Below, piece by piece: positions 776-23,919 of a stretch of 24,000 bases of DNA. Positions within the stretch are counted from its first letter, which is position 1. Each line of letters opens with the position of its first letter. A program made the translations under genes and the position numbers. Under the pieces are notes generated by a model. That model was not told the DNA's origin, did no database searches, and worked only from the letters and a program-made list of their open reading frames with translations. The DNA comes from Congzhengia sp. (GTDB taxonomy: Bacteria; Bacillota; Clostridia; UBA1381; UBA9506), in assembly GCA_045649085.1 (NCBI GenBank), contig JAZRPE010000040.1, positions 14,075 through 38,074 of the forward strand. The letters run 5' to 3'.

Positions 776-807
776 ACCGCTTCCTGCACGCTCTGGCAAA
801 ACCGTTG

Positions 808-2457
808 ATGTTGCCGGAGCGTGTAAGGAACTTTGTTAAAATTAAGTATGAGGAGCGGGTGCTCCAAAGGCCGTATATCGGCGATCAGCTTGATTATGAC
901 TTACTTTGCTGGAGGTCGAGCCGGGCAGTAGTAATTAAGGCTCCCACCGGTGCAGGAAAAACGTGGTTTGCAATCAACAAAATTATCAAACGTGCAAAAA
1001 AGCATAAAGAGAAGGTGTTGATTGTTATGAATCGCAGTCCGTTGAATCTTGCGTATAAAAAGGCAGTTGCAAAAATGGTAGAAAAAGAGAGTTGCTATAC
1101 AGACGAAGGATTGTTGCAGGCGCAGGAGTTTGGCAACGTATTTGTTGTAAACTATCAAGGTCTGGAACACTTTGTGAGGACACATAAGCACGTTGAATTT
1201 TCTTATGTAATATGCGACGAATGCCACTACTTTCTGCAAGACGCATCATTTACTGACTGCACCGGTACGGTGCTTGATATGATTCCCAAGGTATTTGAGT
1301 TTGCTGTAAGAATTTACATCAGTGCAACCATAGAAGAGGTTCTGCCCTTTATCACAAGGGCAGAACTGTATGATTGCAACGTGGATTTTGACGGAAATGT
1401 TTACTGGAAGGACCTGTTACTTGCACAGACCTTTACAGGGCAGTACCCCGTGCCGCTGGTTTACAGAATGGAGTCAGATTACAGTAAAATCAAGCTGCAA
1501 TTTTTTGAAGATACAGAGCTTTTAGCTGAACAACTTAAAGCAGAGCCTTATCAGGTGTTGGCATTTTGCGACACAAAGAAGGAATGCAAAAAGTTTGTTA
1601 AGGCTATAGATAGTGGAAGGGTAATTTATTCGGAGTATCTCCATGAACATCCTGAGGTGCTTAAAAGCCTTGTAGAAAACGAAGGGTTTTCCGGTAAGTG
1701 CCTTGCTGCTACAACTGTATTTTCCAACGGAAACAACATCAGCAGTAAAAATGTAAGGTCGGTAGTTATTACACTATTGGATCAGATTGAGATATTGCAG
1801 ATGGCAGGTCGCAGACGGCTGGATTACTCTGACCCGAACGATGGATTTACTCTGTATCTTAAAATTCCCAAATCAGGGCAAATAAGGCAGAAACTTCATT
1901 CCATATATGCCTTACAGGCAGAAATTGCAGAATGTAAGAAAAATCCTGTTTACCTTATGAGCATCATAAAAGACGGCACCGATGATATGACAGATTCAAT
2001 CCGCCGTGTTTTTGGAATCGACAGGATAACAAAGGATTACAAAATCAATTATCTCTGCGAGGACAAGCTGTATTCACAACAAAAGTATTTAGAATTTATT
2101 GATGCTCTCATAGATGAAAAAGGAGAGGAGGCATACTGCCGGATGATAGCGGAACTTTTTGGTAAAGCATTTGATGAAAGTATGCTCTTTAAAACAAGGG
2201 AAGACAGGAAGATGGAACTCTCGGAGTTTATAAATGGCTATGGATTTCCGTTGTCCTGCGAGGAATTTGAAATCTTCTGTGAAAAATTTACTGAAAAAAG
2301 AGTTCTTCTGTTTGGCAGGAGCGAATCGGATAATTTTGGTATAAACCGCAAAGTACCGGGGTTCCGGTCAATAAACAACCGATTAAAAGAGCTGGGGTTA
2401 GAAATAGAAATCGTAAGAGAAGGCGAAAAATATTATTTAAAAGAGGTATCAGAATGA
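808..2457 (+). CDS. SF2 DEAD/DEAH-box helicase
   Basis: The helicase motifs are visible: Walker A APTGAGKT, motif II ICDECH, motif III SAT (YISATIEE), motif V TTVFSNGNNI and motif VI QMAGRRR. The start is either TTG 805 or ATG 808. Confidence 0.85.
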   Translation: MLPERVRNFVKIKYEERVLQRPYIGDQLDYDLLCWRSSRAVVIKAPTGAGKTWFAINKIIKRAKKHKEKVLIVMNRSPLNLAYKKAVAKMVEKESCYTDEGLLQAQEFGNVFVVNYQGLEHFVRTHKHVEFSYVICDECHYFLQDASFTDCTGTVLDMIPKVFEFAVRIYISATIEEVLPFITRAELYDCNVDFDGNVYWKDLLLAQTFTGQYPVPLVYRMESDYSKIKLQFFEDTELLAEQLKAEPYQVLAFCDTKKECKKFVKAIDSGRVIYSEYLHEHPEVLKSLVENEGFSGKCLAATTVFSNGNNISSKNVRSVVITLLDQIEILQMAGRRRLDYSDPNDGFTLYLKIPKSGQIRQKLHSIYALQAEIAECKKNPVYLMSIIKDGTDDMTDSIRRVFGIDRITKDYKINYLCEDKLYSQQKYLEFIDALIDEKGEEAYCRMIAELFGKAFDESMLFKTREDRKMELSEFINGYGFPLSCEEFEIFCEKFTEKRVLLFGRSESDNFGINRKVPGFRSINNRLKELGLEIEIVREGEKYYLKEVSE

Positions 2458-2551
2458 AAAGTATAGATTTAATTTTAGAAGCAATTTATGAGATATTAAA
2501 TCATAAGAAATAGCTATAAAAGCTAAGTATAAAGCAAAGGAGGTGCAGAGC

Positions 2552-4081
2552 ATGGCCAAAATTTTAAAAGCGGTAGCCTATGCTAGATTTTCAAGTGATT
2601 TACAACGTGAAGAGTCTATTGATGCACAGGTTCGTGCTATAAAAGCTTTTGCAGATGCAAAGGGCTATGCTCTGCAAAAAGTTTATGCGGACCGCGGTAT
2701 CAGCGGGACCACTGATAACAGGCCTGAATTTCAGGCGATGATTGAAGATGTGAAGAATAGTGATATTTCTGCGGTAATTGTCCATAAATCTGACAGATTT
2801 GCAAGAAATCGTGCAGACAGTGCAATATATAGGCGTGAGCTTAAAAAGTATGGGGTACAGGTATTGTCTGTCACTGAGAATATAAATGACGATACGCCGG
2901 AGTCTATAATGTTAACTTCTGTCATTGAAGGAATGAATGAGTATTATTCCGCAAACCTCAGACGAGAGGTTATGAAAGGATTAAAGGAAAACGCTCTGTC
3001 CTGTCGGCATACGGGCGGTAAGCCTTGTCTTGGTTATGATGTAGATAAAAGCACAATGAAGCTTGTTAACAATGAATGGGAAGCTGAAGCAGTTAAACTG
3101 ATTTTTAAACTATATCTGGAGGGGCATGGTTATTCTCATATTATTAATGAACTTAACAAAAGAGGTTATAAAACTAAGAGGGGTGCGGCTTTTGGAAAAA
3201 ATAGTTTATACGAAATATTGCGTAATGAAAAATATACCGGAGTATATGTATATAATTTGTCAGCATCAAAAAATTCCGCAGGAAAATTTAACAGACATAA
3301 AAGCAAACCTGATGATGAAGTAATACGAATTGAAGGTGGTGTACCTCAAATAATACCTACAGAAGAGTTTCAAAAGGTACAACAAGTTATGAAATCAAGA
3401 CAGAGAAAAACCGCCGCCTTTAAAGCGAAACAGGAATATCTGTTGTCAGGTAAAATTATATGTAATGAATGTGGTTGTACCTATGCGGGTAATTCGCGAA
3501 AGGCGAATCCAACACATCCTCTATATGTTTCATATCGTTGCACTAAAAGAAATGGTAAAATAAAATGCAAAAATCCTGAAATCCAAAGGGATTTAATTGA
3601 ATCAATAGTTCAAAAGAAATTAGCAAGTAAGGTTTTTGATGAAAAGGTATTGCCTGAGGTTATCGGCAAATATAATGAGTTTGCTGCTTCAAAAAATACC
3701 GAGCTAATATCTTCCATTAATATGATTAAGGATAAAATTACTGAAGCAGAAAAAGGTATTGCAAATATAGTAAATGTAATTATGCAGACAGGTTCAGTGT
3801 CATTAACAGACAAGTTAAAAGAGTTGGAGAGTGATAAAGCAAAATTTGAACAGACATTGCAAGAAAAACAGATGGAATTATCTGAAATTTCCGTCAATGA
3901 AAAAGTCTTAAAGCGGGCTTTCAAAAAGGCTAAGAAAATGCTCGAATCTGGAACACTATCTAACAAAAAGGCAATTATTGATCGCTATGTAAAGCAAATT
4001 ATATTGGATAAGGATAAAATAGTAATAGAGTTTAATGTAACGGATACATATACAATTACAGAGGAAATAGAGCGTTCATAG
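2552..4081 (+). CDS. Large serine recombinase (resolvase/invertase N-domain, recombinase domain, zinc ribbon, coiled coil)
   Basis: The N-terminus AVAYARFSSDLQREESIDAQ carries the catalytic Ser motif, followed by VHKSDRFARN. A Cys cluster (CNECG...YRCTKR...KCKN) and a C-terminal coiled coil follow. The ATG at 2552 sits 8 nt after the RBS aaggagg; the track start GTG 2543 overlaps that RBS. Confidence 0.9.
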   Translation: MAKILKAVAYARFSSDLQREESIDAQVRAIKAFADAKGYALQKVYADRGISGTTDNRPEFQAMIEDVKNSDISAVIVHKSDRFARNRADSAIYRRELKKYGVQVLSVTENINDDTPESIMLTSVIEGMNEYYSANLRREVMKGLKENALSCRHTGGKPCLGYDVDKSTMKLVNNEWEAEAVKLIFKLYLEGHGYSHIINELNKRGYKTKRGAAFGKNSLYEILRNEKYTGVYVYNLSASKNSAGKFNRHKSKPDDEVIRIEGGVPQIIPTEEFQKVQQVMKSRQRKTAAFKAKQEYLLSGKIICNECGCTYAGNSRKANPTHPLYVSYRCTKRNGKIKCKNPEIQRDLIESIVQKKLASKVFDEKVLPEVIGKYNEFAASKNTELISSINMIKDKITEAEKGIANIVNVIMQTGSVSLTDKLKELESDKAKFEQTLQEKQMELSEISVNEKVLKRAFKKAKKMLESGTLSNKKAIIDRYVKQIILDKDKIVIEFNVTDTYTITEEIERS

Positions 4082-4612: not shown

Positions 4613-4724
4613 CATATTAGATATATATGTTTATTTGTTGTGCAATTTTTTAGGTTGTTTTTAATGAATTACTTTACACTTAGACCAAATATGTATGAAA
4701 TAAAATAAGATTGGAGATGTGAAA

Positions 4725-5123
4725 ATGAATAGAACTTATTATTATCCTGCAATATTTACTAAAGAAGATGTTGGCTTTTCTGTTAGTTTTCCTGACCTTC
4801 CTGGGTGTTTTACCCAGGGAGATACTATTGAAGAAGCTTATAAAATGTCTTCTTCCGCAATTGGATTATATGCACAAAATGAAGATGGTAAATTTGTTTT
4901 TCCGAATGCTAGTGCTCCTAATGATATTACATTAGAAAAAGATGAATTTTTAGTGCTTGTAGAGTTTAATCTTATTGAATACTTAAAAAACACAAGTGAC
5001 AAAGCAGTGAAGAAAACGTTAACTATTCCATCATGGCTTAATAATTTGGCAGAACAAAACAATGTGAATTTTTCCAATGTATTACAAAATGCACTCAAAG
5101 AATATTTGAATGTAAATAGCTAA
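4725..5123 (+). CDS. hicB: HicB-family antitoxin with C-terminal ribbon-helix-helix-like domain
   Basis: YYYPAIFTKEDVGFSVSFPDLPGCFTQGDTIEEA is the typical HicB N-domain. The C-terminal KKTLTIPSWLNNLAEQNNVNFSNVLQNALKEYL resembles an RHH DNA-binding domain. The ATG at 4725 follows the RBS ggaga. Confidence 0.85.
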   Translation: MNRTYYYPAIFTKEDVGFSVSFPDLPGCFTQGDTIEEAYKMSSSAIGLYAQNEDGKFVFPNASAPNDITLEKDEFLVLVEFNLIEYLKNTSDKAVKKTLTIPSWLNNLAEQNNVNFSNVLQNALKEYLNVNS

Positions 5124-5430: not shown

Positions 5431-6474
5431 TTATGCAGAAATCTTCTGCACATATTCTTGCCATTTTAGGACCGAATTACTTCTTCTCGTGTTGCTTAAA
5501 TGAGTGTATATATCTAATGTTGTTTTTATATCTTTGTGGCCGAGCCAGATCTGCGCTGTTTTGACGTCTATATTTGCATCAAACAGCATTGTGGCGTAAG
5601 AATGCCTTAACATATGTGGTGTAGCGGATACGCCTGCTTCGGCTTTATATTTATTCCATTTCCTTGTGATTTGCGAGTTGTCGAGCAATTCGCCCTCTTC
5701 TGTTTGGAATATATAATTATTTTTCTTTCGCTTTATAAGTTCGCCCATTAACAGGTCAGGCAACGGGAGCGTTCTGTATCCCGCATCGGTCTTTGGATGA
5801 TTCTTTATTTGCGGTTTATTTCCTATCCATTCTACAGTTTTTGAAACGGTAACTGTTTTGTTTTTATAGTCAATGTCTTTTGGAGTGATTGCAAATGCTT
5901 CGCCGCGCCGCAATCCAGTGTATAGTAAAAAAAGTGCAAAAAAACCAAAATATACATCCTTGTTCTCTTTGATTCTCTTTATATCTTCGTCTGATGCAGG
6001 TTGACGTTTTTCTCTTTTATTTGGGATGTTGATGGTTATGAACTGACAAGGATTTGAAGGAATTAGTTGCTCAATAAGCGCGTGTTTCATAATTAGGCTT
6101 AGTATAGAGAGCTTACCCTTTATAGTCTTCTTTGCATAACCTTTTTTCTCGTACATTGACACGAAGTTTTTGACATCTGTGGGAGTTATGTCCTGTACCA
6201 TTCTTCCTTCAAAAAATTTGATACATTCTCTCTGTGCAGGTCTATATGCTTTAAGAGAATTATTCTCGATTCTTCCGAAAGTTTCTTCGGCCCATTGTTC
6301 GGCGATTGTTTTAAAAGAATTTTTGTTTTCTGTTGTGCTTTCAATCTCAAGTATTTGCTTATTAAAATCTTTAACGGCTTCGCGTTCCGATTTTGCGTTT
6401 GAGTAAAAGTATTTTGATGTACCATCGGGGAGCTTTACTTTTTTTACCCAACGGCCATCTTTTCTTTGCTTCAT
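5431..6474 (-). CDS. int: Tyrosine recombinase / phage integrase
   Basis: The C-terminal catalytic region is HMLRHSYATMLFDANIDVKTAQIWLGHKDIKTTLDIYTHL (HxxR...Y), with an earlier GLRRGE Arg motif. The ATG at 6474 follows the RBS gaagg by 8 nt; the track start GTG 6483 abuts that RBS. Confidence 0.9.
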   Translation of the reverse strand: MKQRKDGRWVKKVKLPDGTSKYFYSNAKSEREAVKDFNKQILEIESTTENKNSFKTIAEQWAEETFGRIENNSLKAYRPAQRECIKFFEGRMVQDITPTDVKNFVSMYEKKGYAKKTIKGKLSILSLIMKHALIEQLIPSNPCQFITINIPNKREKRQPASDEDIKRIKENKDVYFGFFALFLLYTGLRRGEAFAITPKDIDYKNKTVTVSKTVEWIGNKPQIKNHPKTDAGYRTLPLPDLLMGELIKRKKNNYIFQTEEGELLDNSQITRKWNKYKAEAGVSATPHMLRHSYATMLFDANIDVKTAQIWLGHKDIKTTLDIYTHLSNTRRSNSVLKWQEYVQKISA

Positions 6475-6563
6475 GTATTGCACCTTCTTTTCTTAAATGG
6501 TAAACACAATAGTAGTCCTATAATTTTCTACTTTGTGTCGTTACCTAAGATGTCGATTAATTT

Positions 6564-7277: not shown

Positions 7278-7718
7278 TTATAAAATCTCGGGTTTCTTCT
7301 TTTTTGGTTTACTTACGAAGTCGCCGCCGAATGCTGCAAGCTCTGTTCCGGGAGAAAGATTTATTCTCTTTGTTCTCTGTGACTTTGTAAAGTGTATAAA
7401 ATCTAATACTTTCTGCAACTCTTCTTCTGTTAAGTCATTTATTTCTTCTAGGAATATTTTTTCATTATTTGTGAGCTTATGTTCTACAGGCTTTATTGCA
7501 GGTGTTTCTTCTTCCCACCCCATAAGATATGCAGGGGTAGTGTGTAGAGCTTTTGCTAATAAGGCTATCTTATCGCGACGCATATTAGCTATTGCACCTG
7601 TTTCCCATTTTCTAACCGTGCTTTTTCCTACGCCCACATCTTTGCCAACCTGTTCCAATGTAAGATGATTCTGTTCTCTTAATAATTTTATTTTATCTCC
7701 TATATTTAATTCTTTCAT
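7278..7718 (-). CDS. CI-like XRE-family repressor
   Basis: N-terminal HTH: IGDKIKLLREQNHLTLEQVGKDVGVGKSTVRKWETG. The gene is divergent from the cro-like gene and is followed in the same operon by the ImmA-like gene. Confidence 0.85.
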   Translation of the reverse strand: MKELNIGDKIKLLREQNHLTLEQVGKDVGVGKSTVRKWETGAIANMRRDKIALLAKALHTTPAYLMGWEEETPAIKPVEHKLTNNEKIFLEEINDLTEEELQKVLDFIHFTKSQRTKRINLSPGTELAAFGGDFVSKPKKKKPEIL

Positions 7719-12203: not shown

Positions 12204-12304
12204 TTAAAAAAAAGGATTTGTCAAATAACATTCATTTAGCATGTTAGGAAAGTTGACACCTATGTTATACCACAAAAAAATCAAAAAATCAAGAGGTAAT
12301 AACT

Positions 12305-15445: not shown

Positions 15446-16216
15446 ATGAATTATATTGCTGAACTTAACGCCTTTGAGCGTGCGCTCGAAACTGTTCGGC
15501 TGCCAGCAAATGCTCAATTGCTTTGGTACAAGCTTATGTGCCTGGCAAATAGGAGTAATTGGTCTGAGTGGATAGAAGTAGATAACGGACGGCTTGCAGG
15601 AATGTTAGGTATTCATCGCAACTCTGTAATTTCCGCGCGTGATAAGTTAATTGAGAAAAATTTCATAGAGTATCAGCGAGGAAAAGGCAGAGGAATAGGA
15701 AGGTATAAAATTATCTCTTTGATGCACAAAAAAGATGCATCTACAAATGATTTGATGCACAATAACAGGGCAACAACTTGTGCATCAACCTGTGCATCAA
15801 ATTGTGCAGAAGGCGTAAAGAAAGAAAAGAACCAAAAGAAAGAAATAATAAATAATAATATTATTAAAACAAAAACAGAAACAGAAAAAAATGCTGCTGC
15901 GGTTGTGAAAGCATATCAGGACAATATCGGTTTTGTAAGTCCTGCGGTTTTTGAAAAGATTTGCGCTTGGCTTGATGATGTAGATGAAAGTCTGATTATT
16001 TACGCCATAGAACAGGCGGTATTTAACAACAAGCCTAATTGGCAGTATATAAATGCTATTCTCAATAATCACTTTAAGGCAGGGCGCAAGACAAGAGCCG
16101 ATGCAGAGAATGTGCCAAAGGCTAAGCCTAAAGAGGAAAAGAAAAGCCGATATGATTTTGCAGAGCTTGAGCGCAGAGCATTTATGAAAGTAGCGAAAGG
16201 AAATGATGATATATGA
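15446..16216 (+). CDS. Phage replisome organizer / DnaD-domain replication protein
   Basis: The N-terminal winged-helix-like part is LAGMLGIHRNSVISARDKLIEKNFIEYQRG. The C-terminal DnaD-type repeat is AYQDNIGFVSPAVFEKICAWLDD...LIIYAIEQAV...NWQYINAILNNHFKAG. Confidence 0.85.
   Translation: MNYIAELNAFERALETVRLPANAQLLWYKLMCLANRSNWSEWIEVDNGRLAGMLGIHRNSVISARDKLIEKNFIEYQRGKGRGIGRYKIISLMHKKDASTNDLMHNNRATTCASTCASNCAEGVKKEKNQKKEIINNNIIKTKTETEKNAAAVVKAYQDNIGFVSPAVFEKICAWLDDVDESLIIYAIEQAVFNNKPNWQYINAILNNHFKAGRKTRADAENVPKAKPKEEKKSRYDFAELERRAFMKVAKGNDDI
15779..15895. other. Candidate phage origin: 12-bp-periodic tgtgca(tcaa) repeats followed by an A-rich tract inside the organizer gene
   Basis: tgtgcatcaa occurs at 15779 and 15791, and tgtgca at 15803. 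gatgca(c/t) occurs at 15721, 15734 and 15754. A strongly A/T-rich tract spans about 15825-15895. Confidence 0.35.
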
Positions 16217-16533
16217 ACTTAACTAGATTTTCAAAAGATGTACATAAAAATGCAGTTGAACACGGTTGGTGGGAAGAAGAAAGAACTCTTGGCGAGATTA
16301 TAGCTCTTTGTCATAGTGAACTTTCAGAAGCTTTGGAAGAATACCGAAACGGAAAACCGTGTCTTTATTATGTAGATGGAAAGCCTGAAGGAATTGGCGC
16401 CGAATTGGCAGACTGCATCATTCGTATTTTGGACTACTGCGGAAGGCAGGGAATTGATATTGAGGAAATCATAAAGGAAAAGCACGAATTTAATAAATCA
16501 AGACCGTACAAGCACGGCGGAAAGGTTATATAA
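16213..16533 (+). CDS. MazG-like nucleotide pyrophosphohydrolase
   Basis: ALCHSELSEALEEYRNG and AELADCIIRILDYC give the EExxE/D-type helices of small phage MazG proteins. The start is ATGA-coupled. Confidence 0.7.
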   Translation: MNLTRFSKDVHKNAVEHGWWEEERTLGEIIALCHSELSEALEEYRNGKPCLYYVDGKPEGIGAELADCIIRILDYCGRQGIDIEEIIKEKHEFNKSRPYKHGGKVI

Positions 16534-17942: not shown

Positions 17943-18341
17943 ATGAATAAAGTTATACTTGTTGGCCGCTTAACCAAAGACCCCGAACTGCGTGCAACAA
18001 CATCAGGTGTATCGGTAGCAAGTTTTACCGTAGCCTGCGACAGACGATTTGTAAAGCAGGGCGAGGAAAGAAAAGCAGATTTTATAAACTGTATTGCCTG
18101 GCGTCAAAGTGGCGAGGCAATTTCAAGATATTTCAAAAAGGGAGACCGTATTGCCCTTGAAGGAAGTATTCAGGTAAGAGATTGGCAAGACAACGACGGC
18201 AAAAAACGCTATGCAACAGAAGTTGTTGTGGATGAGTGGGAATTTGCACAGAGTAAAAATGAAGGTGCACCTGCAGTGTCAAACACAGAAGCAGACCTTG
18301 ACGGATTTATGCCTGTTGACGATGAAGACCTTCCGTTCTGA
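17943..18341 (+). CDS. ssb: Single-stranded DNA-binding protein
   Basis: MNKVILVGRLTKDPELR...F is an OB-fold start. The acidic C-terminal tip is DDEDLPF. Confidence 0.92.
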   Translation: MNKVILVGRLTKDPELRATTSGVSVASFTVACDRRFVKQGEERKADFINCIAWRQSGEAISRYFKKGDRIALEGSIQVRDWQDNDGKKRYATEVVVDEWEFAQSKNEGAPAVSNTEADLDGFMPVDDEDLPF

Positions 18342-18352
18342 TGAGGTGCGAT

Positions 18353-19753
18353 ATGAGAGAATTATTTATAGATAACTTCGCCGGCGGTGGCGGTGCTTCT
18401 ACAGGAATAGAAGCGGCAATAAAAAGGTCTGTTGATATTGCCATAAACCACGACCCCGATGCGATTGCAATGCATAAGGCAAACCACCCTAACACGAAGC
18501 ATTATTGTGAGGATGTGTGGGAAGTATCTCCAAAGGAAGCCTGCGGAGATAACCCTGTGGCACTTGCCTGGTTCAGTCCTGATTGCAAACACTTTTCAAG
18601 AGCGAAAGGCGGAAAGCCTGTTGATAAAAACATAAGAGGTCTTGCGTGGGTTGCAATAAAATGGGCGTATGAAGTAAGACCGAGAGTGTTGATGCTTGAA
18701 AATGTACCTGAGATACAGACGTGGGGACCATTGGGAGAAGATAACAAACCAATAAAGGAAAGAGCCGGAGAAACATTCAGAGGTTTTATTGCAGTATTAT
18801 CAGACGGACTGTCTAAGGAACATCCGGCGTTTGCTGAAATGTGTTCGGCGCTGAATATTGACATTAACTCTGATATGGCAGACGAACTTTCAAAGGGTTT
18901 GGGATATAAAGTAGAGTTTAAGGAATTAGTATCTTGTGACTACGGCGCTCCAACGTCACGAAAGCGATTCTATATGATTGCAAGATGCGATGGTAAGAAG
19001 ATTGTGTGGCCGTCGGCAACACACGCCCAACGAGAGAGTTTATTTGTACATAGCGGACAATGCAAACCCTATATATCTGCTGCAGAGTGCATTGATTGGA
19101 CTATTCCCGGAAAGAGCATATTTGACAGAAAGAAACCGTTGTGTGAAAAAACAATGAGACGCATCGCAAAAGGATTTAAAAAATTCGTCTTAGATAATCC
19201 TGAACCGTATATTGTTGACGATAAATATGTTCCGTATTTGATACAGTATCACGATGAAACGAGTGAAGATGAGGTGCGCGGACAAAGTGTTCTAGACCCC
19301 ATAATGACTTTAGATACATCGAACAGATATGCTCTTATCGCCCCTTATATTGTTACTTTGAGAAATAATATGACAGGGCAGCAGGTAGAAGAACCTATAA
19401 GCACAATTACCTGCAAAGACCATCACGAAGTCGTGTATGCTTATTTGATTAAATATTATAGTGGCATCCTTGCAAGTGATGTAAGCAAACCGATAGATAC
19501 ATTAACTACAATGGATAGATTTGCTTTGATAACAGTTCTCGGGGAAAAATATTATGTTAAAGACATACTTATGCGATTTTTAGAACCACGAGAAATGTTT
19601 AAAATGACAGGGTTCCCGGCAGAGTACAAAATTGATTATGACATAGACGGAAATGTCATATCAAGAGAGAAAAAGGTTGCTAAGTGCGGAAACGCAGTAA
19701 CACCGCCCGTAGCTACGGCGTTGGTTAGAGCGAATCTGCCTGAATATTGTTAG
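18353..19753 (+). CDS. DNA (cytosine-5)-methyltransferase, orphan
   Basis: Motif I is DNFAGGGG, motif IV SPDCKHFS, motif VI LMLENV, motif VIII TSRKRFYMIA, motif IX EPREMFKMTGFP and motif X CGNAVTPPVA. No restriction endonuclease gene is adjacent. The ATG at 18353 follows the RBS gaggtg; ATG 18341 is the alternative. Confidence 0.9.
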   Translation: MRELFIDNFAGGGGASTGIEAAIKRSVDIAINHDPDAIAMHKANHPNTKHYCEDVWEVSPKEACGDNPVALAWFSPDCKHFSRAKGGKPVDKNIRGLAWVAIKWAYEVRPRVLMLENVPEIQTWGPLGEDNKPIKERAGETFRGFIAVLSDGLSKEHPAFAEMCSALNIDINSDMADELSKGLGYKVEFKELVSCDYGAPTSRKRFYMIARCDGKKIVWPSATHAQRESLFVHSGQCKPYISAAECIDWTIPGKSIFDRKKPLCEKTMRRIAKGFKKFVLDNPEPYIVDDKYVPYLIQYHDETSEDEVRGQSVLDPIMTLDTSNRYALIAPYIVTLRNNMTGQQVEEPISTITCKDHHEVVYAYLIKYYSGILASDVSKPIDTLTTMDRFALITVLGEKYYVKDILMRFLEPREMFKMTGFPAEYKIDYDIDGNVISREKKVAKCGNAVTPPVATALVRANLPEYC

Positions 19754-19763
19754 GAGTGATTAT

Positions 19764-19994
19764 ATGTCGCAATGTGAAAGAATTGTTCAGTACATAAATC
19801 AGCACGGAAGTATTACACCGTTAGAAGCGGTAAACGACTTGGGGTGTATGAGGCTTGCAAGTCGCATAACAGATTTAAAACAGCGTGGAGTTTCCATTAT
19901 AAGCGAATGGGAAGAAGGTAAGAACCGCCGCGGCGAAAAAACAAGGTACAAAAGATATTTTATATTAAATAATACAAAGGAGAAAACATCATGA
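19764..19994 (+). CDS. Small winged-helix DNA-binding protein
   Basis: ERIVQYINQHGSITPLEAVNDLGCMRLASRITDLKQRG fits the phage wHTH pattern. Its stop is ATGA-coupled to DGR target 1. Confidence 0.6.
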   Translation: MSQCERIVQYINQHGSITPLEAVNDLGCMRLASRITDLKQRGVSIISEWEEGKNRRGEKTRYKRYFILNNTKEKTS

Positions 19995-20599
19995 AAAACT
20001 ATTTAAGGTTAAACGGAAAAGACATTGAGTTGACGGATGCGCAGGTCGAGGACATTAAAAAGTCCTTCGGTCTTGGCTCAAAAGAATTGGGAAAGGTCGA
20101 TGTAGGTAAAACTGCAAGAATTGGTGAGTTTGAGTTTGTTGTGCTTGAGCACAGCGCAGAAACAACAGCGGTTATCTTAAAGGGCCTTTACAAAGAAAGC
20201 GAAGAGTTCGGCAAAAACAATAATTTTGACGGCTCTTATGCGGACAAGCACTGCAAGGAGTTCGAAAAGAAGTTTGCCAAAGTTATCGGTTCTGAAAACA
20301 TCATTGAGCACAAGGTAGATTTAACAGCTGATGATGGTTTGAAGTGTTATGGTACAGTTCGCCGCAAGGTTTCATTATTAACTACAGACCTTTATCGCAG
20401 ATATGTATACATATTAGACGAATACAATCCTGAAAAATGGTGGTGGCTTGCTACACCGCACAGCACACCCAAGCATTGTGGCTATAACTGGGTAAAATGC
20501 GTTGCGCCCTCGGCTTACTTGTACTACAACTTCTACTACGACTATTACGGCGTGCGTCCGTTTTGTATCTTGAAATCTTCTATCTTTGTATCAGAATAA
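19991..20599 (+). CDS. DGR variable target protein 1 (202 aa)
   Basis: The C-terminus WWWLATPHSTPKHCGYNWVKCVAPSAYLYYNFYYDYYGVRPFCIL contains VR1. The WW..(S/T)P ... GVRP pattern resembles C-type-lectin-fold/DUF1566-like DGR targets. It is a paralogue of target 2. No signal peptide or TM is visible. Confidence 0.85.
   Translation: MKNYLRLNGKDIELTDAQVEDIKKSFGLGSKELGKVDVGKTARIGEFEFVVLEHSAETTAVILKGLYKESEEFGKNNNFDGSYADKHCKEFEKKFAKVIGSENIIEHKVDLTADDGLKCYGTVRRKVSLLTTDLYRRYVYILDEYNPEKWWWLATPHSTPKHCGYNWVKCVAPSAYLYYNFYYDYYGVRPFCILKSSIFVSE
20498..20561 (+). repeat. DGR variable repeat VR1
   Basis: The sequence tgcgttgcgccctcggctTacttgTacTacaacTTctacTacGacTatTacggcgtgcgtccgt has 9 differences from TR, all at TR adenines (capitalised). 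Confidence 0.9.
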
Positions 20600-20619
20600 A
20601 TTAAAAAAGGAGCATAATT

Positions 20620-21144
20620 ATGAAAACATTAAAAGAAATTGGAACAGGAAAAACATTTAGAGTGGCAGACATTGAGTTTGTCAAGGTAAAGGAAACCGAC
20701 AAAGGCACGATAGTAGTTACAAAGGATTGTCTTTTTGATTCTACATTTGGTAGTGACAATAACCTGCATGAAAGCAAAATTTTAAAAAGACTGCAGGAAG
20801 AAATCTTACCTAAGATTGAAGAGGCTGTAGGAGCTGAAAATGTACTTGAATTTGAAACAGACCTTACAACTCTTGACGGATTAAAACCTTATGAACCTTT
20901 AAAGTCAAAAATCAGCTTACCGACATTAGACTTCTATCGCGAGAATGTGGCGGTATTCGATGAACATAAAATTGACGGTTGGTGGTGGTTGGCAACTCCT
21001 GAAAGCGCAAAGCCACACAGTAACCCTACTTGGATAATTTGCGTTGCGCCCTCGGCTAACTTGAACAACAACCTCTACTACGACAATAACGGCGTGCGTC
21101 CGATTTTGTTCTTTGTATCTAATATCTCTGTATCTGAGAAATAA
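20620..21144 (+). CDS. DGR variable target protein 2 (174 aa)
   Basis: The RBS aaaggag is present. The C-terminus WWWLATPESAKPHSNPTWIICVAPSANLNNNLYYDNNGVRPILFF contains VR2. No signal peptide or TM is visible. Confidence 0.85.
   Translation: MKTLKEIGTGKTFRVADIEFVKVKETDKGTIVVTKDCLFDSTFGSDNNLHESKILKRLQEEILPKIEEAVGAENVLEFETDLTTLDGLKPYEPLKSKISLPTLDFYRENVAVFDEHKIDGWWWLATPESAKPHSNPTWIICVAPSANLNNNLYYDNNGVRPILFFVSNISVSEK
21038..21102 (+). repeat. DGR variable repeat VR2
   Basis: The sequence tttgcgttgcgccctcggctaacttgaacaacaacCTctacTacGacaataacggcgtgcgtccg has 4 differences from TR, all at TR adenines. Confidence 0.9.
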
Positions 21145-21151
21145 CAGGGTT

Positions 21152-21178
21152 CCCACGCTGCGCAGTACGCAGTGTGGG
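21152..21178 (+). promoter_or_regulatory. GC-rich hairpin 50 nt downstream of VR2 (candidate DGR target-recognition hairpin)
   Basis: The arms cccacgctgcg (21152-21162) and cgcagtgtggg (21168-21178) form an 11-bp stem with one G-T pair and a 5-nt loop cagta. No U-tract follows. Confidence 0.5.
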
Positions 21179-21254
21179 AGAGAGGACGAACTACGAAATG
21201 AAAATGATATTTTCTCACGGGAAAATATCTAAGAAATGGAGTAAGTGAGGACGA

Positions 21255-21626
21255 ATGAATGATGCCGATTTAAAGGTAATTGGAAAGGCAAAAGAACTCG
21301 CAAAGCATACTTACATACTAACAACGAACGCAGACAGATTTCCTAAAAAGGTCCGCCATTCCCTGGTGGATAAAATGCAGATAAAGTGCCTCGAAATTTA
21401 TGAGGCACTCTTTGAAGCAAATCGCATAAACAATAAAACCCATAAGAACGAACGATGCGAAAGAATTACAGATGCAATTACATATTGTGATGAGCTGCAG
21501 TTCTTTATAGAGCTTTCTATGGACTTGGGATATGTGAAGGATAAATCTGCAGGTTATTGGTCGGGGTTGGTAACGGATGTAAAGCGTATGTCTATTGCCT
21601 GGAGAACAAGTGAAAGAAAACAATAA
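21255..21626 (+). CDS. avd: Avd-like accessory variability determinant (four-helix-bundle protein)
   Basis: A 123-aa helical, basic protein (KAKELAKHTY...FPKKVRHSLVDKMQIKCLEIYEALFEAN...). It sits between the targets and TR exactly as bavd does in the BPP-1 DGR. Confidence 0.8.
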   Translation: MNDADLKVIGKAKELAKHTYILTTNADRFPKKVRHSLVDKMQIKCLEIYEALFEANRINNKTHKNERCERITDAITYCDELQFFIELSMDLGYVKDKSAGYWSGLVTDVKRMSIAWRTSERKQ

Positions 21627-21654: not shown

Positions 21655-21720
21655 TTTGCGTTGCGCCCTCGGCTAACTTGAACAACAACAACTACAACAA
21701 CAATAACGGCGTGCGTCCGT
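21655..21720 (+). repeat. DGR template repeat (TR)
   Basis: The sequence is tttgcgttgcgccctcggct AAC TTG AAC AAC AAC AAC TAC AAC AAC AAT AAC ggcgtgcgtccgt. It has 19 adenines, all confined to 21675-21706, and both flanks are A-free. Confidence 0.9.
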
Positions 21721-21830
21721 ATTGGTGGAATGTCAGACAGAGTAGGCACTATGCCCAAATCAGAACACCCCTAACAAAAGAACATACAACCTTTCCTCTT
21801 ATGAGGATAAACAAAAAGGACTGTTGCTGT

Positions 21831-22871
21831 ATGACCGACTTTGAAAAAGTTATTGATTTTAATAATATGTATCGAGCGTTCCGCAAATCAAAAAGCGGTA
21901 AAGGCTTTAAGAAAAGCTCTGCAAGGTTTAATGCTATGGCTTTAGACGGGATAAATACCCTGATAGAACAGTTAAGGTCGAGAACCTACACAATATCAGA
22001 GTACCACGAATTTAAGGTCTACGAACCAAAAGAGCGTGTAATTAAGACCACATCTTTTAAGGACAAGGTCGTGCAGCACAGTTTATGTGATAATGTATTA
22101 CTTCCCAGGATGCGTGAGATTTTTCTAAAAGATAATTGTGCCGGGCAAAAGGGAAAAGGTACCGACTTTGGCTTGGACCGATTAAGTGAGCAAATGAAAG
22201 CCTTTTATAAGCGGTACGGCACGAAAGGATATATCTTAAAATGCGATATTTCTAAGTTCTTTTATAACATCTCGCACGAGCAGTTAAAAGATATAGTCGA
22301 ATACTATTTCGGCTATGACGAGGGAATTTTGTGGCTCTGTAATCTGTTTATAGACAGTACAGAGGGCAAAGGCATACCGTTGGGAAATCAAATCAACCAG
22401 GGTTTGGCACTATTGTACCTTGACGGAATGGACAAGCTCATAACTAGTGAATTAGGTATCGAGTTCTACGGCAGGTATGCGGATGATTTTTATTTGATAC
22501 ACCAGGACAAAGAATATCTTAAGTATTGCCTGCAGGTTATAACGGAATTTCTTGAAACTCTTGACCTGAAGCTGAACGGCAAAACACAAATATTCCCAAT
22601 AAAGAACGGCGTGAATTACCTCGGTTTTCATACCTATATCACGGATACGGGGAAAGTAATACGCAAATTAAAGAATCAAAATAAACGCAATAAACAAAAG
22701 AAATACTTGAAGATGGCCCATCTTGTGGCAGAAGGTAGGCTCCCTATTGAAAAGTTTTACGCCTCATATAACGCCTGGCGTAATCATATCTCCCACGGGA
22801 ACTGTCACAATCTTGGCAGGGCGGTCGATAAGAAGGTAAGAGAAGTGCTGCGGGAGGAGCGTGAAAAATAA
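21831..22871 (+). CDS. DGR reverse transcriptase
   Basis: The RT motifs are LKCDISKFFYNI (motif A Asp), GIPLGNQINQGLALLYL (a variant of the DGR-type (I/L)GxxxSQ), GRYADDFYLIH (YADD) and VNYLGFH. The ATG at 21831 follows the RBS aaaaagga. The track ORF start 21678 lies inside TR. Confidence 0.92.
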   Translation: MTDFEKVIDFNNMYRAFRKSKSGKGFKKSSARFNAMALDGINTLIEQLRSRTYTISEYHEFKVYEPKERVIKTTSFKDKVVQHSLCDNVLLPRMREIFLKDNCAGQKGKGTDFGLDRLSEQMKAFYKRYGTKGYILKCDISKFFYNISHEQLKDIVEYYFGYDEGILWLCNLFIDSTEGKGIPLGNQINQGLALLYLDGMDKLITSELGIEFYGRYADDFYLIHQDKEYLKYCLQVITEFLETLDLKLNGKTQIFPIKNGVNYLGFHTYITDTGKVIRKLKNQNKRNKQKKYLKMAHLVAEGRLPIEKFYASYNAWRNHISHGNCHNLGRAVDKKVREVLREEREK

Positions 22872-23288: not shown

Positions 23289-23729
23289 TTGGAAGAAACA
23301 AAGAAATGGCTGAACCGCGCATATGCAATAGACAAAGAAATAAAAGTTCTTAAAGCGGAATTAAAAAAGGCAAACCTTGCAGCGACATCTCTTGCGACAC
23401 AACGAATCGAAGAGAAGGTTCAAACCTCGAAAGTAAACAATGCAGACTATGCAATACTCAAATGTGTAGAGTACTCTGAACAGATAACGAAGAAACTTGG
23501 CGAACTTTATTCTGCAAAAATCGAAATAAGCGAAGCTATTTCGTGTGTAGATGATGGTAAATTAAGAGTGCTCCTTAGAATGAGATATTTAAGTTATATG
23601 CAGTGGAATGAAATCGCAAACAAAATGAACTTTTCAGTGCGTAACATTCAATACATGCATGATAAGGCGGTAGAAGAGGTAAAATACATCATTGCACACA
23701 ATTTCATATCAACCTGTGATATTGTGTAA
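23289..23729 (+). CDS. Putative late-gene transcriptional activator (sigma-70 region-4-like HTH; ArpU/RinA/DUF1492-like position and pattern)
   Basis: TTG 23289 lies 8 nt after aaggag. The N-terminal coiled coil is WLNRAYAIDKEIKVLKAELKKA and the C-terminal part is LRVLLRMRYLSYMQWNEIANKMNFSVRNIQYMHDKAVEEV. It lies directly upstream of the packaging region. Confidence 0.55.
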   Translation: MEETKKWLNRAYAIDKEIKVLKAELKKANLAATSLATQRIEEKVQTSKVNNADYAILKCVEYSEQITKKLGELYSAKIEISEAISCVDDGKLRVLLRMRYLSYMQWNEIANKMNFSVRNIQYMHDKAVEEVKYIIAHNFISTCDIV

Positions 23730-23780: not shown

Positions 23781-23919
23781 GTGCCGGAAACGCATTGCCG
23801 GTGGATGAGGTTGGAGGGAATAAACGAATAAGATAGGAGCTGATACCCTGTATGAATCCGAATAATAAAGCTGATGCCGCAAGGGTGTCGGCTTTTTCAT
23901 TTATAGTGGGGTGGTAAGG

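Follow-up and report, generated by a model that had tools for sequence, protein, structure and literature searches.

Background

The usual view of phage diversity-generating retroelements (DGRs) is that they switch tropism by diversifying tail or decoration proteins. The DNA described here, a 24,000-nucleotide stretch of a Congzhengia sp. contig (JAZRPE010000040.1, positions 14,075 to 38,074; hereafter the window), carries the left arm of a temperate Clostridia phage in which a DGR diversifies two small tandem paralogous target proteins, T1 and T2. Their genes reside in the early operon and not in a tail-fibre module, and this position, together with fusions of related targets to MazG-type nucleoside triphosphate (NTP) pyrophosphohydrolases, suggests with about an even chance of being right that T1 and T2 are cytoplasmic, early-acting diversified binders and not tail-fibre receptor binders.

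Small DGR targets consisting only of a DUF6273 domain have already been published from phages nd4 and nd12 (PMC10743442), Lelie (PMC11792537) and Toutatis (bioRxiv 10.1101/2024.10.15.618418). nd4_tgt2 and nd12_tgt2 share 29-33% identity with T1 and T2 and resemble them as small stand-alone targets of gut Clostridia phages with a C-terminal variable repeat (VR); nd4_tgt2 is also found in an early/replication region. In nd4 and nd12, however, the small protein is a second and remote target, the main one being a large immunoglobulin (Ig)-domain tentaclin, whereas T1 and T2 are two tandem small paralogues directly upstream of avd, the template repeat (TR) and the reverse transcriptase (RT). Toutatis gp24, Lelie orf58 and Brigit gp06 belong to the same family (28-31% identity) and are likewise early-region DGR targets, but each is present only once, 15-41 kb away from its TR, and the RT cassette and a Hoc-like target are separate; in Toutatis the RT cassette occupies a hotspot between tail genes and the integrase (bioRxiv 10.1101/2024.10.15.618418). 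The function of the Lelie/CP11 small target has been called "not entirely clear" (PMC11792537), and the second Toutatis target is described as "of unknown function" and as a core gene that 98.8% of the phages carry, with or without the DGR (bioRxiv 10.1101/2024.10.15.618418). A tblastn search of the phage collection with T1 and T2 gave matches only in Faecalibacterium, nd and unnamed gut phages.

Other described systems share some features of the locus. Benler et al. 2021 proposed that the Quimbyvirus DGR target, encoded beside methyltransferases, is non-structural and acts in phage-host conflict (PMC8008677). Like T1 and T2 it is distal to the structural module and close to methyltransferases and other counter-defence-type genes; unlike them it is a single target on the opposite strand of a Bacteroidetes phage whose RT is frameshifted. 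Since both the family and the idea of a non-structural target are thus in print, the locus is less novel than the first-pass annotation of this DNA implied. Mtd of phage BPP-1 has in common with T1 and T2 the DGR mechanism, the C-terminal VR and the avd-TR-RT order, but is a 381-aa protein encoded beside the tail-fibre gene and has a TR of 134 nt as against 62 nt here. Mtd has an N-terminal beta-prism and a beta-sandwich domain, which are considered to attach it to the tail fibre (PMC10743442); T1 and T2, by contrast, are early-operon proteins without attachment domains, T2 being a bare domain and T1 adding only ~28 residues. The tentaclins and Hoc-like proteins (Mushu, Brigit gp60, nd4_tgt1) have the same DUF6273-type VR domain and AAC-rich TRs, but they span 400-620 aa, carry Ig/Fn3 domains and have the VR domain at the N-terminus, and their genes adjoin structural or lysis genes. 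In the literature on these DGR targets no description was found of a compact tandem cassette, of family-wide early-operon residence, of T1/T2 asymmetry or of pyrophosphohydrolase fusions. What appears to be new is the early-operon position across the family even where the RT lies beside tail genes, the conserved asymmetry of the pair, and the fusions.

A complete retroelement with two targets

The locus is a complete DGR of compact layout, T1-T2-avd-TR-RT (Table 1). Both VRs are near the 3' end of their target open reading frames (ORFs) and align to the TR without gaps, with nine mismatches in VR1 and four in VR2, and 13 of 13 of these fall at the 19 adenines of the TR. Differences confined to template adenines, in the presence of an RT and Avd, are the signature of mutagenic retrohoming of cDNA made from adenine-mutagenised TR RNA. 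The repeats translate as VAPSAYLYYNFYYDYYGVRP (VR1), VAPSANLNNNLYYDNNGVRP (VR2) and VAPSANLNNNNYNNNNGVRP (TR), and each is closed by a GC-rich 3' end, GGCGTGCGTCCG, found exactly three times in the window, where 0.04 occurrences would be expected. There is no third VR in the window, nor within 10 kb in most relatives, and the exact degenerate TR pattern gave 0 matches in IMG/VR. As judged from the sequence, the DGR is probably active; related loci differ mainly in the VR, which indicates past DGR activity in the family.

The RT finds by tblastn annotated phage RTs, among them the DGR RTs of nd12 (51%), FP_Brigit and BPP-1 (Brt, 29.5%), and Avd scores below the curated cut-offs of Pfam bAvd (28 bits) and NCBIfam DivGenRetAVD (40.7 bits). 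Translation of the RT likely starts at the ATG at 21831. The longest RT-containing ORF (window 21678-22871) begins at a TTG inside the TR, so that ORF callers join the TR-encoded 'NNNNYNNNNGVRP' to the RT, and the same artefact gives rise to double matches to target and RT in many relatives.

Related loci were sampled from IMG/VR (79) and from GTDB genomes (80), of which 156 were usable. Those from genomes come from Congzhengia, Oscillospiraceae, Acutalibacteraceae, Faecousia, Ruminococcus and other Clostridia metagenome-assembled genomes (MAGs), and the closest relatives are in Congzhengia MAGs. The commonest arrangement is that of the window, two targets followed by avd and RT (76/156 loci); a single target with avd and RT is found in 20 loci, a target alone in 23, and a target pair without avd and RT in seven loci that are not cut by a contig end. 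Such pairs in early operons without avd or RT (L054, L055, L059, L062, L065 and L082, with sister loci L058, L060, L061 and L063 that have both) show that the targets persist without the retroelement. The first gene carries an N-terminal extension in 79 of 98 tandem pairs and the second lacks it in 96, with a median T1-T2 identity of 42%; the duplication is therefore old and its asymmetry fixed.

Of 90 tandem loci, 62 have two VRs that both match a single TR with no fewer than 90% of the mismatches at adenine. For these 62 loci the median share of TR adenines that have changed is 0.53 in VR1 and 0.50 in VR2, with no systematic difference between the two (Wilcoxon P = 0.37), and substitutions at TR adenines follow a strongly skewed spectrum (A->G 53%, A->T 41%, A->C 7%). 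Against this background the load of VR2 in the window (4/19 adenines) is the lowest of the 62 comparable loci; that of VR1 (9/19) is ordinary, although eight of its nine changes are A->T and give tyrosine (P = 0.004 against the family spectrum). A drift of VR1 toward a tyrosine-rich surface and a template-like VR2, both noted at first pass, are thus borne out, but the independent selection on the two copies that was read from them cannot be shown, since three of the four co-changed positions are identical, which is within expectation from the A->G/T skew (P ~0.4), and VR loads are equal across the family. The changed sites of VR1 and VR2 overlap in position at P = 0.03 only. Derivation of the shared substitutions from a common cDNA or by gene conversion was also considered and dropped, the proportion of identical co-mutated sites being 58% family-wide.

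Early residence of the small targets

Profile matches to Pfam and PHROG order the left arm of the phage as a minus-strand integrase and repressor followed by a long plus-strand operon that encodes, in order, DUF1351, RecT, a metallo-hydrolase, an HNHc_6 nuclease, a DnaD/DnaB_2 replication protein, a MazG-like pyrophosphatase, RusA, SSB and a C5 methyltransferase. After the methyltransferase come a winged-helix (wHTH) gene, T1, T2, avd, the TR, the RT, three small ORFs and the late activator. T1 starts ~240 nt 3' of the methyltransferase gene, and an ATGA sequence joins the wHTH stop to the T1 start, an overlap that the first-pass annotation had described correctly. The consensus scan found a single good plus-strand promoter-like site, at 12253, and the terminator scan a sole plus-strand terminator-like site, at 23867-23895, 3' of the late activator; no terminator-like site was found on this strand from 12.3 to 23.87 kb. 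One long early transcript spanning T1 and T2 would fit these pattern matches.

The target genes had also been placed upstream of the late activator and terminase. The activator is indeed downstream within the window; the terminase would be past the window end, as seen from relatives. In L006, which is 87% identical, the activator is followed by a terminase-small-like ORF, a 404-aa Walker-A ORF and a 446-aa ORF, the latter two being read by eye as large terminase and portal, and in L004 Pfam marks Terminase_6N and a P22 portal.

The claim that the targets are outside a tail-fibre module holds for the window and across the family. The commonest same-strand neighbours of the target genes are SSB, replication initiator, metal-dependent hydrolase, Sak-like and RecT-like annealing proteins, RecE-like exonuclease, NinB and SbcC-like proteins, and at least one replication/recombination marker (SSB, replication initiator, Sak, RecE, NinB, SbcC or RecT) accompanies the target in 96 of 156 loci. 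An integrase is upstream of the target on the opposite strand in 51 loci, and large terminase (TerL) or portal genes are downstream in 27 and upstream in three. In the 60 loci that extend 8 kb or more on each side, a replication/recombination marker is present in 41, and an integrase or lysin is upstream in 33 and downstream in 0. Single-target loci have the same kind of neighbours. Methyltransferase matches within 10 kb occur upstream (10) and downstream (11) of the target in related loci.

The position is also kept where the retroelement is elsewhere. In FP_Brigit, avd-TR-RT and the adjacent Hoc-like target gp60 come directly after the tail-fibre gene, and gp06, annotated as hypothetical (L002 3948-4559, L167 ~5412), directly follows the cro-side regulators, 5' of the exonuclease and RecT genes; between the VR of gp06 and its TR, which is 41 kb distant, 7/7 mismatches fall at adenine. 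Toutatis gp24, Lelie orf58 and nd4_tgt2 are likewise in the early region with a remote DGR core, the distance from avd-TR-RT to the small target being 10-41 kb in the four phages. The early position thus belongs to the target gene and not to the retroelement, and early-operon residence is a conserved property of the whole small-target family. The cassette co-occurs with separate, unclustered TerL groups, a P22-type portal and a P2-like myovirus baseplate, and the target has no lineage-specific anchor domain.

Fusions to NTP pyrophosphohydrolases

The target domain is fused to MazG-type NTP pyrophosphohydrolases twice, independently. In seven IMG/VR loci (L064, L068, L069, L075, L076, L080 and L081) a 287-aa protein combines it with a C-terminal NTP pyrophosphohydrolase (phrog_2245, E 5e-20), and in L074 (9773-10609) it is joined to a genuine MazG domain (Pfam 28.1 bits against a gathering threshold (GA) of 22; phrog_1992, E 3e-41); the C-terminal domain of another representative is found elsewhere in nucleotide pyrophosphohydrolases. 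The fused genes are also among replication genes. When near-identical loci are compared the VR is the most variable mid-gene segment, only the gene 3' end being equally variable, and no RT is found within 10 kb, so that a remote TR is implied; the fused genes are therefore probably DGR targets as well. MazG-type enzymes act on cytoplasmic nucleotides, from which it follows that the fused target domains, at least, function in the cytoplasm. A similar architecture of cytoplasmic diversified binder and effector domain is found in the DGR-diversified sensors of bacterial conflict systems (PMC7159879, PMC10907252), which are host-encoded and mirror the fusions in concept.

A stand-alone MazG-like pyrophosphatase (window 16213-16533; phrog_3301, E 1e-38), i.e. 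of the enzyme class that is fused to target domains in other phages, also belongs to the early operon of the window, its gene being 3.5 kb upstream of T1. P0170 (355 aa) is a natural single-chain fusion of two target domains; its single-sequence AlphaFold2 model (predicted local distance difference test, pLDDT, 38.9) is uninformative on the interface between them.

Domain structure of T1 and T2

As first described, T1 and T2 are small tandem paralogues, with 43% identity to each other, T1 being longer by about 28-29 N-terminal residues. phrog_9958, a family of unknown function in PHROG, covers nearly the whole of both. Pfam DUF6273 (PF19789) matches only the C-terminal part, with 23.1 bits for T1 and 20.2 bits for T2 against a GA of 23.5, but is carried by many close homologues and reaches 38-50 bits in more distant members. 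A large collection yielded 1678 homologues; at 50% identity 618 clusters match (E<=0.001), and nearly all of the best 150 of the 618 clusters are stand-alone proteins of 170-270 aa with the domain C-terminal.

Comparison of predicted folds, proposed at first pass with Mtd among the candidates, revealed a DUF6273 fold. The AlphaFold2 model of T1 (pLDDT 86.5) has low confidence at residues 175-182, inside the VR, and the diversified segment of ~11 AAC/AAT-derived codons is a low-confidence surface stretch near the C-terminus. A Foldseek search of BFVD with this model finds viral DUF6273 proteins of the same fold (E 3e-7 to 3e-6, TM-score 0.55-0.61), including large DUF6273 proteins auto-named tail proteins; the best PDB match, a weak one, is the DUF6273-containing IgA peptidase of Thomasclavelia ramosa (E 0.099). 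Profile comparison of the family with BPP-1 Mtd detects no similarity (hhalign probability 0.2%), and T1 and T2 have no matches to Ig or Fn3 domains.

The absence of a signal peptide or transmembrane segment from both proteins is upheld. By hydropathy neither has an N-terminal hydrophobic core, lipobox or transmembrane segment, the best 19-residue Kyte-Doolittle windows being 0.89 for T1 and 0.37 for T2, where a transmembrane helix gives ~1.6, and a hydrophobic N-terminus is found in only one or two of 270 family members, apparently as over-extended ORF calls. Residues 1-28 of T1 (window 19991-20074) have the conserved pattern MKNYxxLNGxxIELTxxQVxxIKxSFG and form a beta-beta-alpha unit in the model; the pattern recalls half of an AbrB/SpoVT swapped hairpin.

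Features of the window

Coordinates are collected in Table 1. The HTH_39 gene was rejected as a cassette component, its offset from the targets being variable among related loci. The hairpin in the spacer between T2 and avd was considered as a DGR target-recognition hairpin and likewise rejected, there being none 3' of VR1 and none in 16 related loci. The same spacer contains a second, perfect 9-bp inverted repeat (21206-21214 / 21221-21229); in close relatives avd directly follows T2, and the spacer and both inverted repeats are absent. Left of the tyrosine integrase are a helicase-like ORF, a large serine recombinase (Resolvase, Recombinase and Zn ribbon) and an ORF that is HicB-like by eye (window 805-4081 and 4719-5123), which may represent a second mobile element or the prophage flank.

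Table 1. Features of the phage left arm and its DGR, in window coordinates
Feature	Position	Strand	Size, matches and remarks
Tyrosine integrase	5431-6483	minus	
CI-like repressor	7278-7718	minus	
C5 cytosine DNA methyltransferase	18341-19753	plus	Pfam DNA_methylase E 4.6e-25; phrog_116 E 2.5e-92
Small winged-helix protein HTH_39	19764-19994	plus	76 aa; Pfam HTH_39 E 7.8e-19
T1, DGR target 1	19991-20599	plus	202 aa; DUF6273-related domain and N-terminal extension; phrog_9958 E 5e-34
VR1, in T1	20499-20560	plus	62 nt; residues ~170-190
T2, DGR target 2	20620-21144	plus	174 aa; T1 paralogue without N-terminal extension; phrog_9958 E 1e-31
VR2, in T2	21041-21102	plus	62 nt
GC-rich hairpin	21151-21179		12-bp stem, 5-nt loop; DNA fold z = -4.0; in 110-nt T2-avd spacer (21145-21254)
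avd	21255-21626	plus	123 aa; phrog_3206 'Avd protein of DGR' E 5.7e-24
TR	21658-21719	plus	62 nt; 19 adenines, mostly in AAC/AAT codons
DGR reverse transcriptase	21831-22871	plus	346 aa; intact, YADD present; RVT_1 E 1.8e-15; phrog_1423 E 3e-102
Late-gene activator, DUF1492 / ArpU-like, sigma-r4-like	23289-23729	plus	DUF1492 E 6.9e-7; phrog_36 E 3e-23

Possible functions of the diversified targets

In the favoured interpretation T1 and T2 would be co-transcribed with the early replication and recombination genes of a temperate Clostridia phage and would act in the cytoplasm as soluble binders, their specificity being re-rolled by the phage through the DGR, with a ligand that may be found within phage-host or phage-phage conflict. 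The first-pass annotation had offered diversified intracellular binders as one option beside detachable virion or decoration proteins, and the early position and the two independent MazG-type fusions lean toward the former, at roughly even probability, while the virion role keeps an appreciable if smaller share.

Several points weigh against cytoplasmic action. Early-operon position is only a proxy for expression, and localisation and timing would follow from it indirectly; moreover an early-made protein can still enter virions. The MazG fusions are sporadic (8/156 loci) and could be fusions of operon neighbours. Searches of PADLOC and NCBIfam gave no informative match to T1 or T2, and hence no functional hint. 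To our knowledge the experimentally characterised phage DGR targets are all virion proteins. DUF6273 also occurs in proteins of extracellular or virion type, e.g. tentaclins and Hoc-like proteins and the secreted T. ramosa IgA protease's N-terminal domain. The authors of the nd4/nd12 work "hypothesize" an Mtd-like receptor-binding role and leave the replication/early genes unmentioned (PMC10743442), and those of the Toutatis work consider the second target likely receptor-binding (bioRxiv 10.1101/2024.10.15.618418). The first-pass annotation would have counted kinship with established receptor-binding proteins against an intracellular role; homologous small targets are indeed published, but as receptor binders they are guesses of their authors.

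The same precedents favour the best surviving alternative, that T1 and T2 are virion-associated adhesins, i.e. accessory receptor binders or decoration proteins whose genes happen to stand apart from the structural module, and which dock perhaps via the N-terminal extension of T1. DUF6273 is the VR domain of the tentaclins and Hoc-like proteins, BFVD fold matches include auto-named tail proteins, the tyrosine-rich VR1 resembles a paratope for an external ligand, and viral DGR targets were mostly classed as tail proteins by Roux et al. 2021. On the other hand, the early-operon position is kept even when the RT and a large target are beside tail genes, an anchor domain and profile similarity to Mtd are wanting, the same conserved protein accompanies unrelated head and tail types, and target domains are fused to cytoplasmic NTP pyrophosphohydrolases. 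The sole fusion of a capsid N-terminus to the C-terminal half of a target (P0252 / L086), which might have indicated virion display, is on one 1291-bp contig, is probably a chimera and was rejected. On balance virion adhesins are possible but somewhat doubtful.

Too much had been read at first pass into the lack of an export signal. Virion proteins of phages, among them Mtd, are likewise produced in the cytoplasm and freed by lysis, so that the lack of such a signal is uninformative about virion membership.

Release by lysis without an export signal would equally serve non-virion, soluble lectin-like proteins that reach the outside of the cell by lysis or in vesicles and bind glycans of host cells, neighbouring microbes or mucosa, e.g. 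masking receptors on debris or benefiting lysogens. The DUF6273 fold has been reported as C-type-lectin-like (among others in PMC10743442 and bioRxiv 10.1101/2024.10.15.618418), and according to a 2026 preprint a Faecalibacterium prophage has a DUF6273 tentaclin, diversified by a DGR, that occurs in the bacterial secretome and in vesicles without particles. That preprint, however, concerns a large Ig-domain target and not the small family; early-operon expression and the MazG fusions are better suited to a cytoplasmic role, and the scans show no promoter or terminator of the target genes' own, hence no sign of expression in the prophage state. An extracellular lectin is accordingly an unlikely reading.

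Least probable, indeed hardly to be expected, is that the position has no functional meaning and the targets merely travel with a mobile DGR module in a permissive early spot or one whose replication-time expression is needed for retrohoming: DGR cassettes of Toutatis-like phages are in hypervariable hotspots (bioRxiv 10.1101/2024.10.15.618418) and the immediate upstream neighbours of the cassette vary among phage groups, but the targets of Brigit, Toutatis, Lelie and nd4 are early with avd-TR-RT far off, the Toutatis small target is reportedly a core gene whether or not the DGR is present, and target pairs persist in early operons without avd and RT.

Within the cytoplasmic reading a more specific proposal, put forward tentatively, is that the early pair serves as a re-programmable weapon that neutralises or senses fast-varying host defence proteins or competing phages, with an NTP pyrophosphohydrolase effector fused to it in some lineages.

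Significance

Were this proposal true, the phage would possess in the pair its own equivalent of adaptive recognition, a function separate from tropism switching. More generally, action of the small targets inside the cell would give DGRs an additional use, in phage-host or phage-phage conflict after entry, an idea that has been raised only once so far, for a Bacteroidetes phage. The family is large, and its members are present as prophages in many gut Clostridia MAGs. The question is thereby sharpened to whether phage DGRs also diversify intracellular proteins, and it is directly testable, since FP_Brigit, Toutatis and Lelie have cultivable Faecalibacterium hosts.

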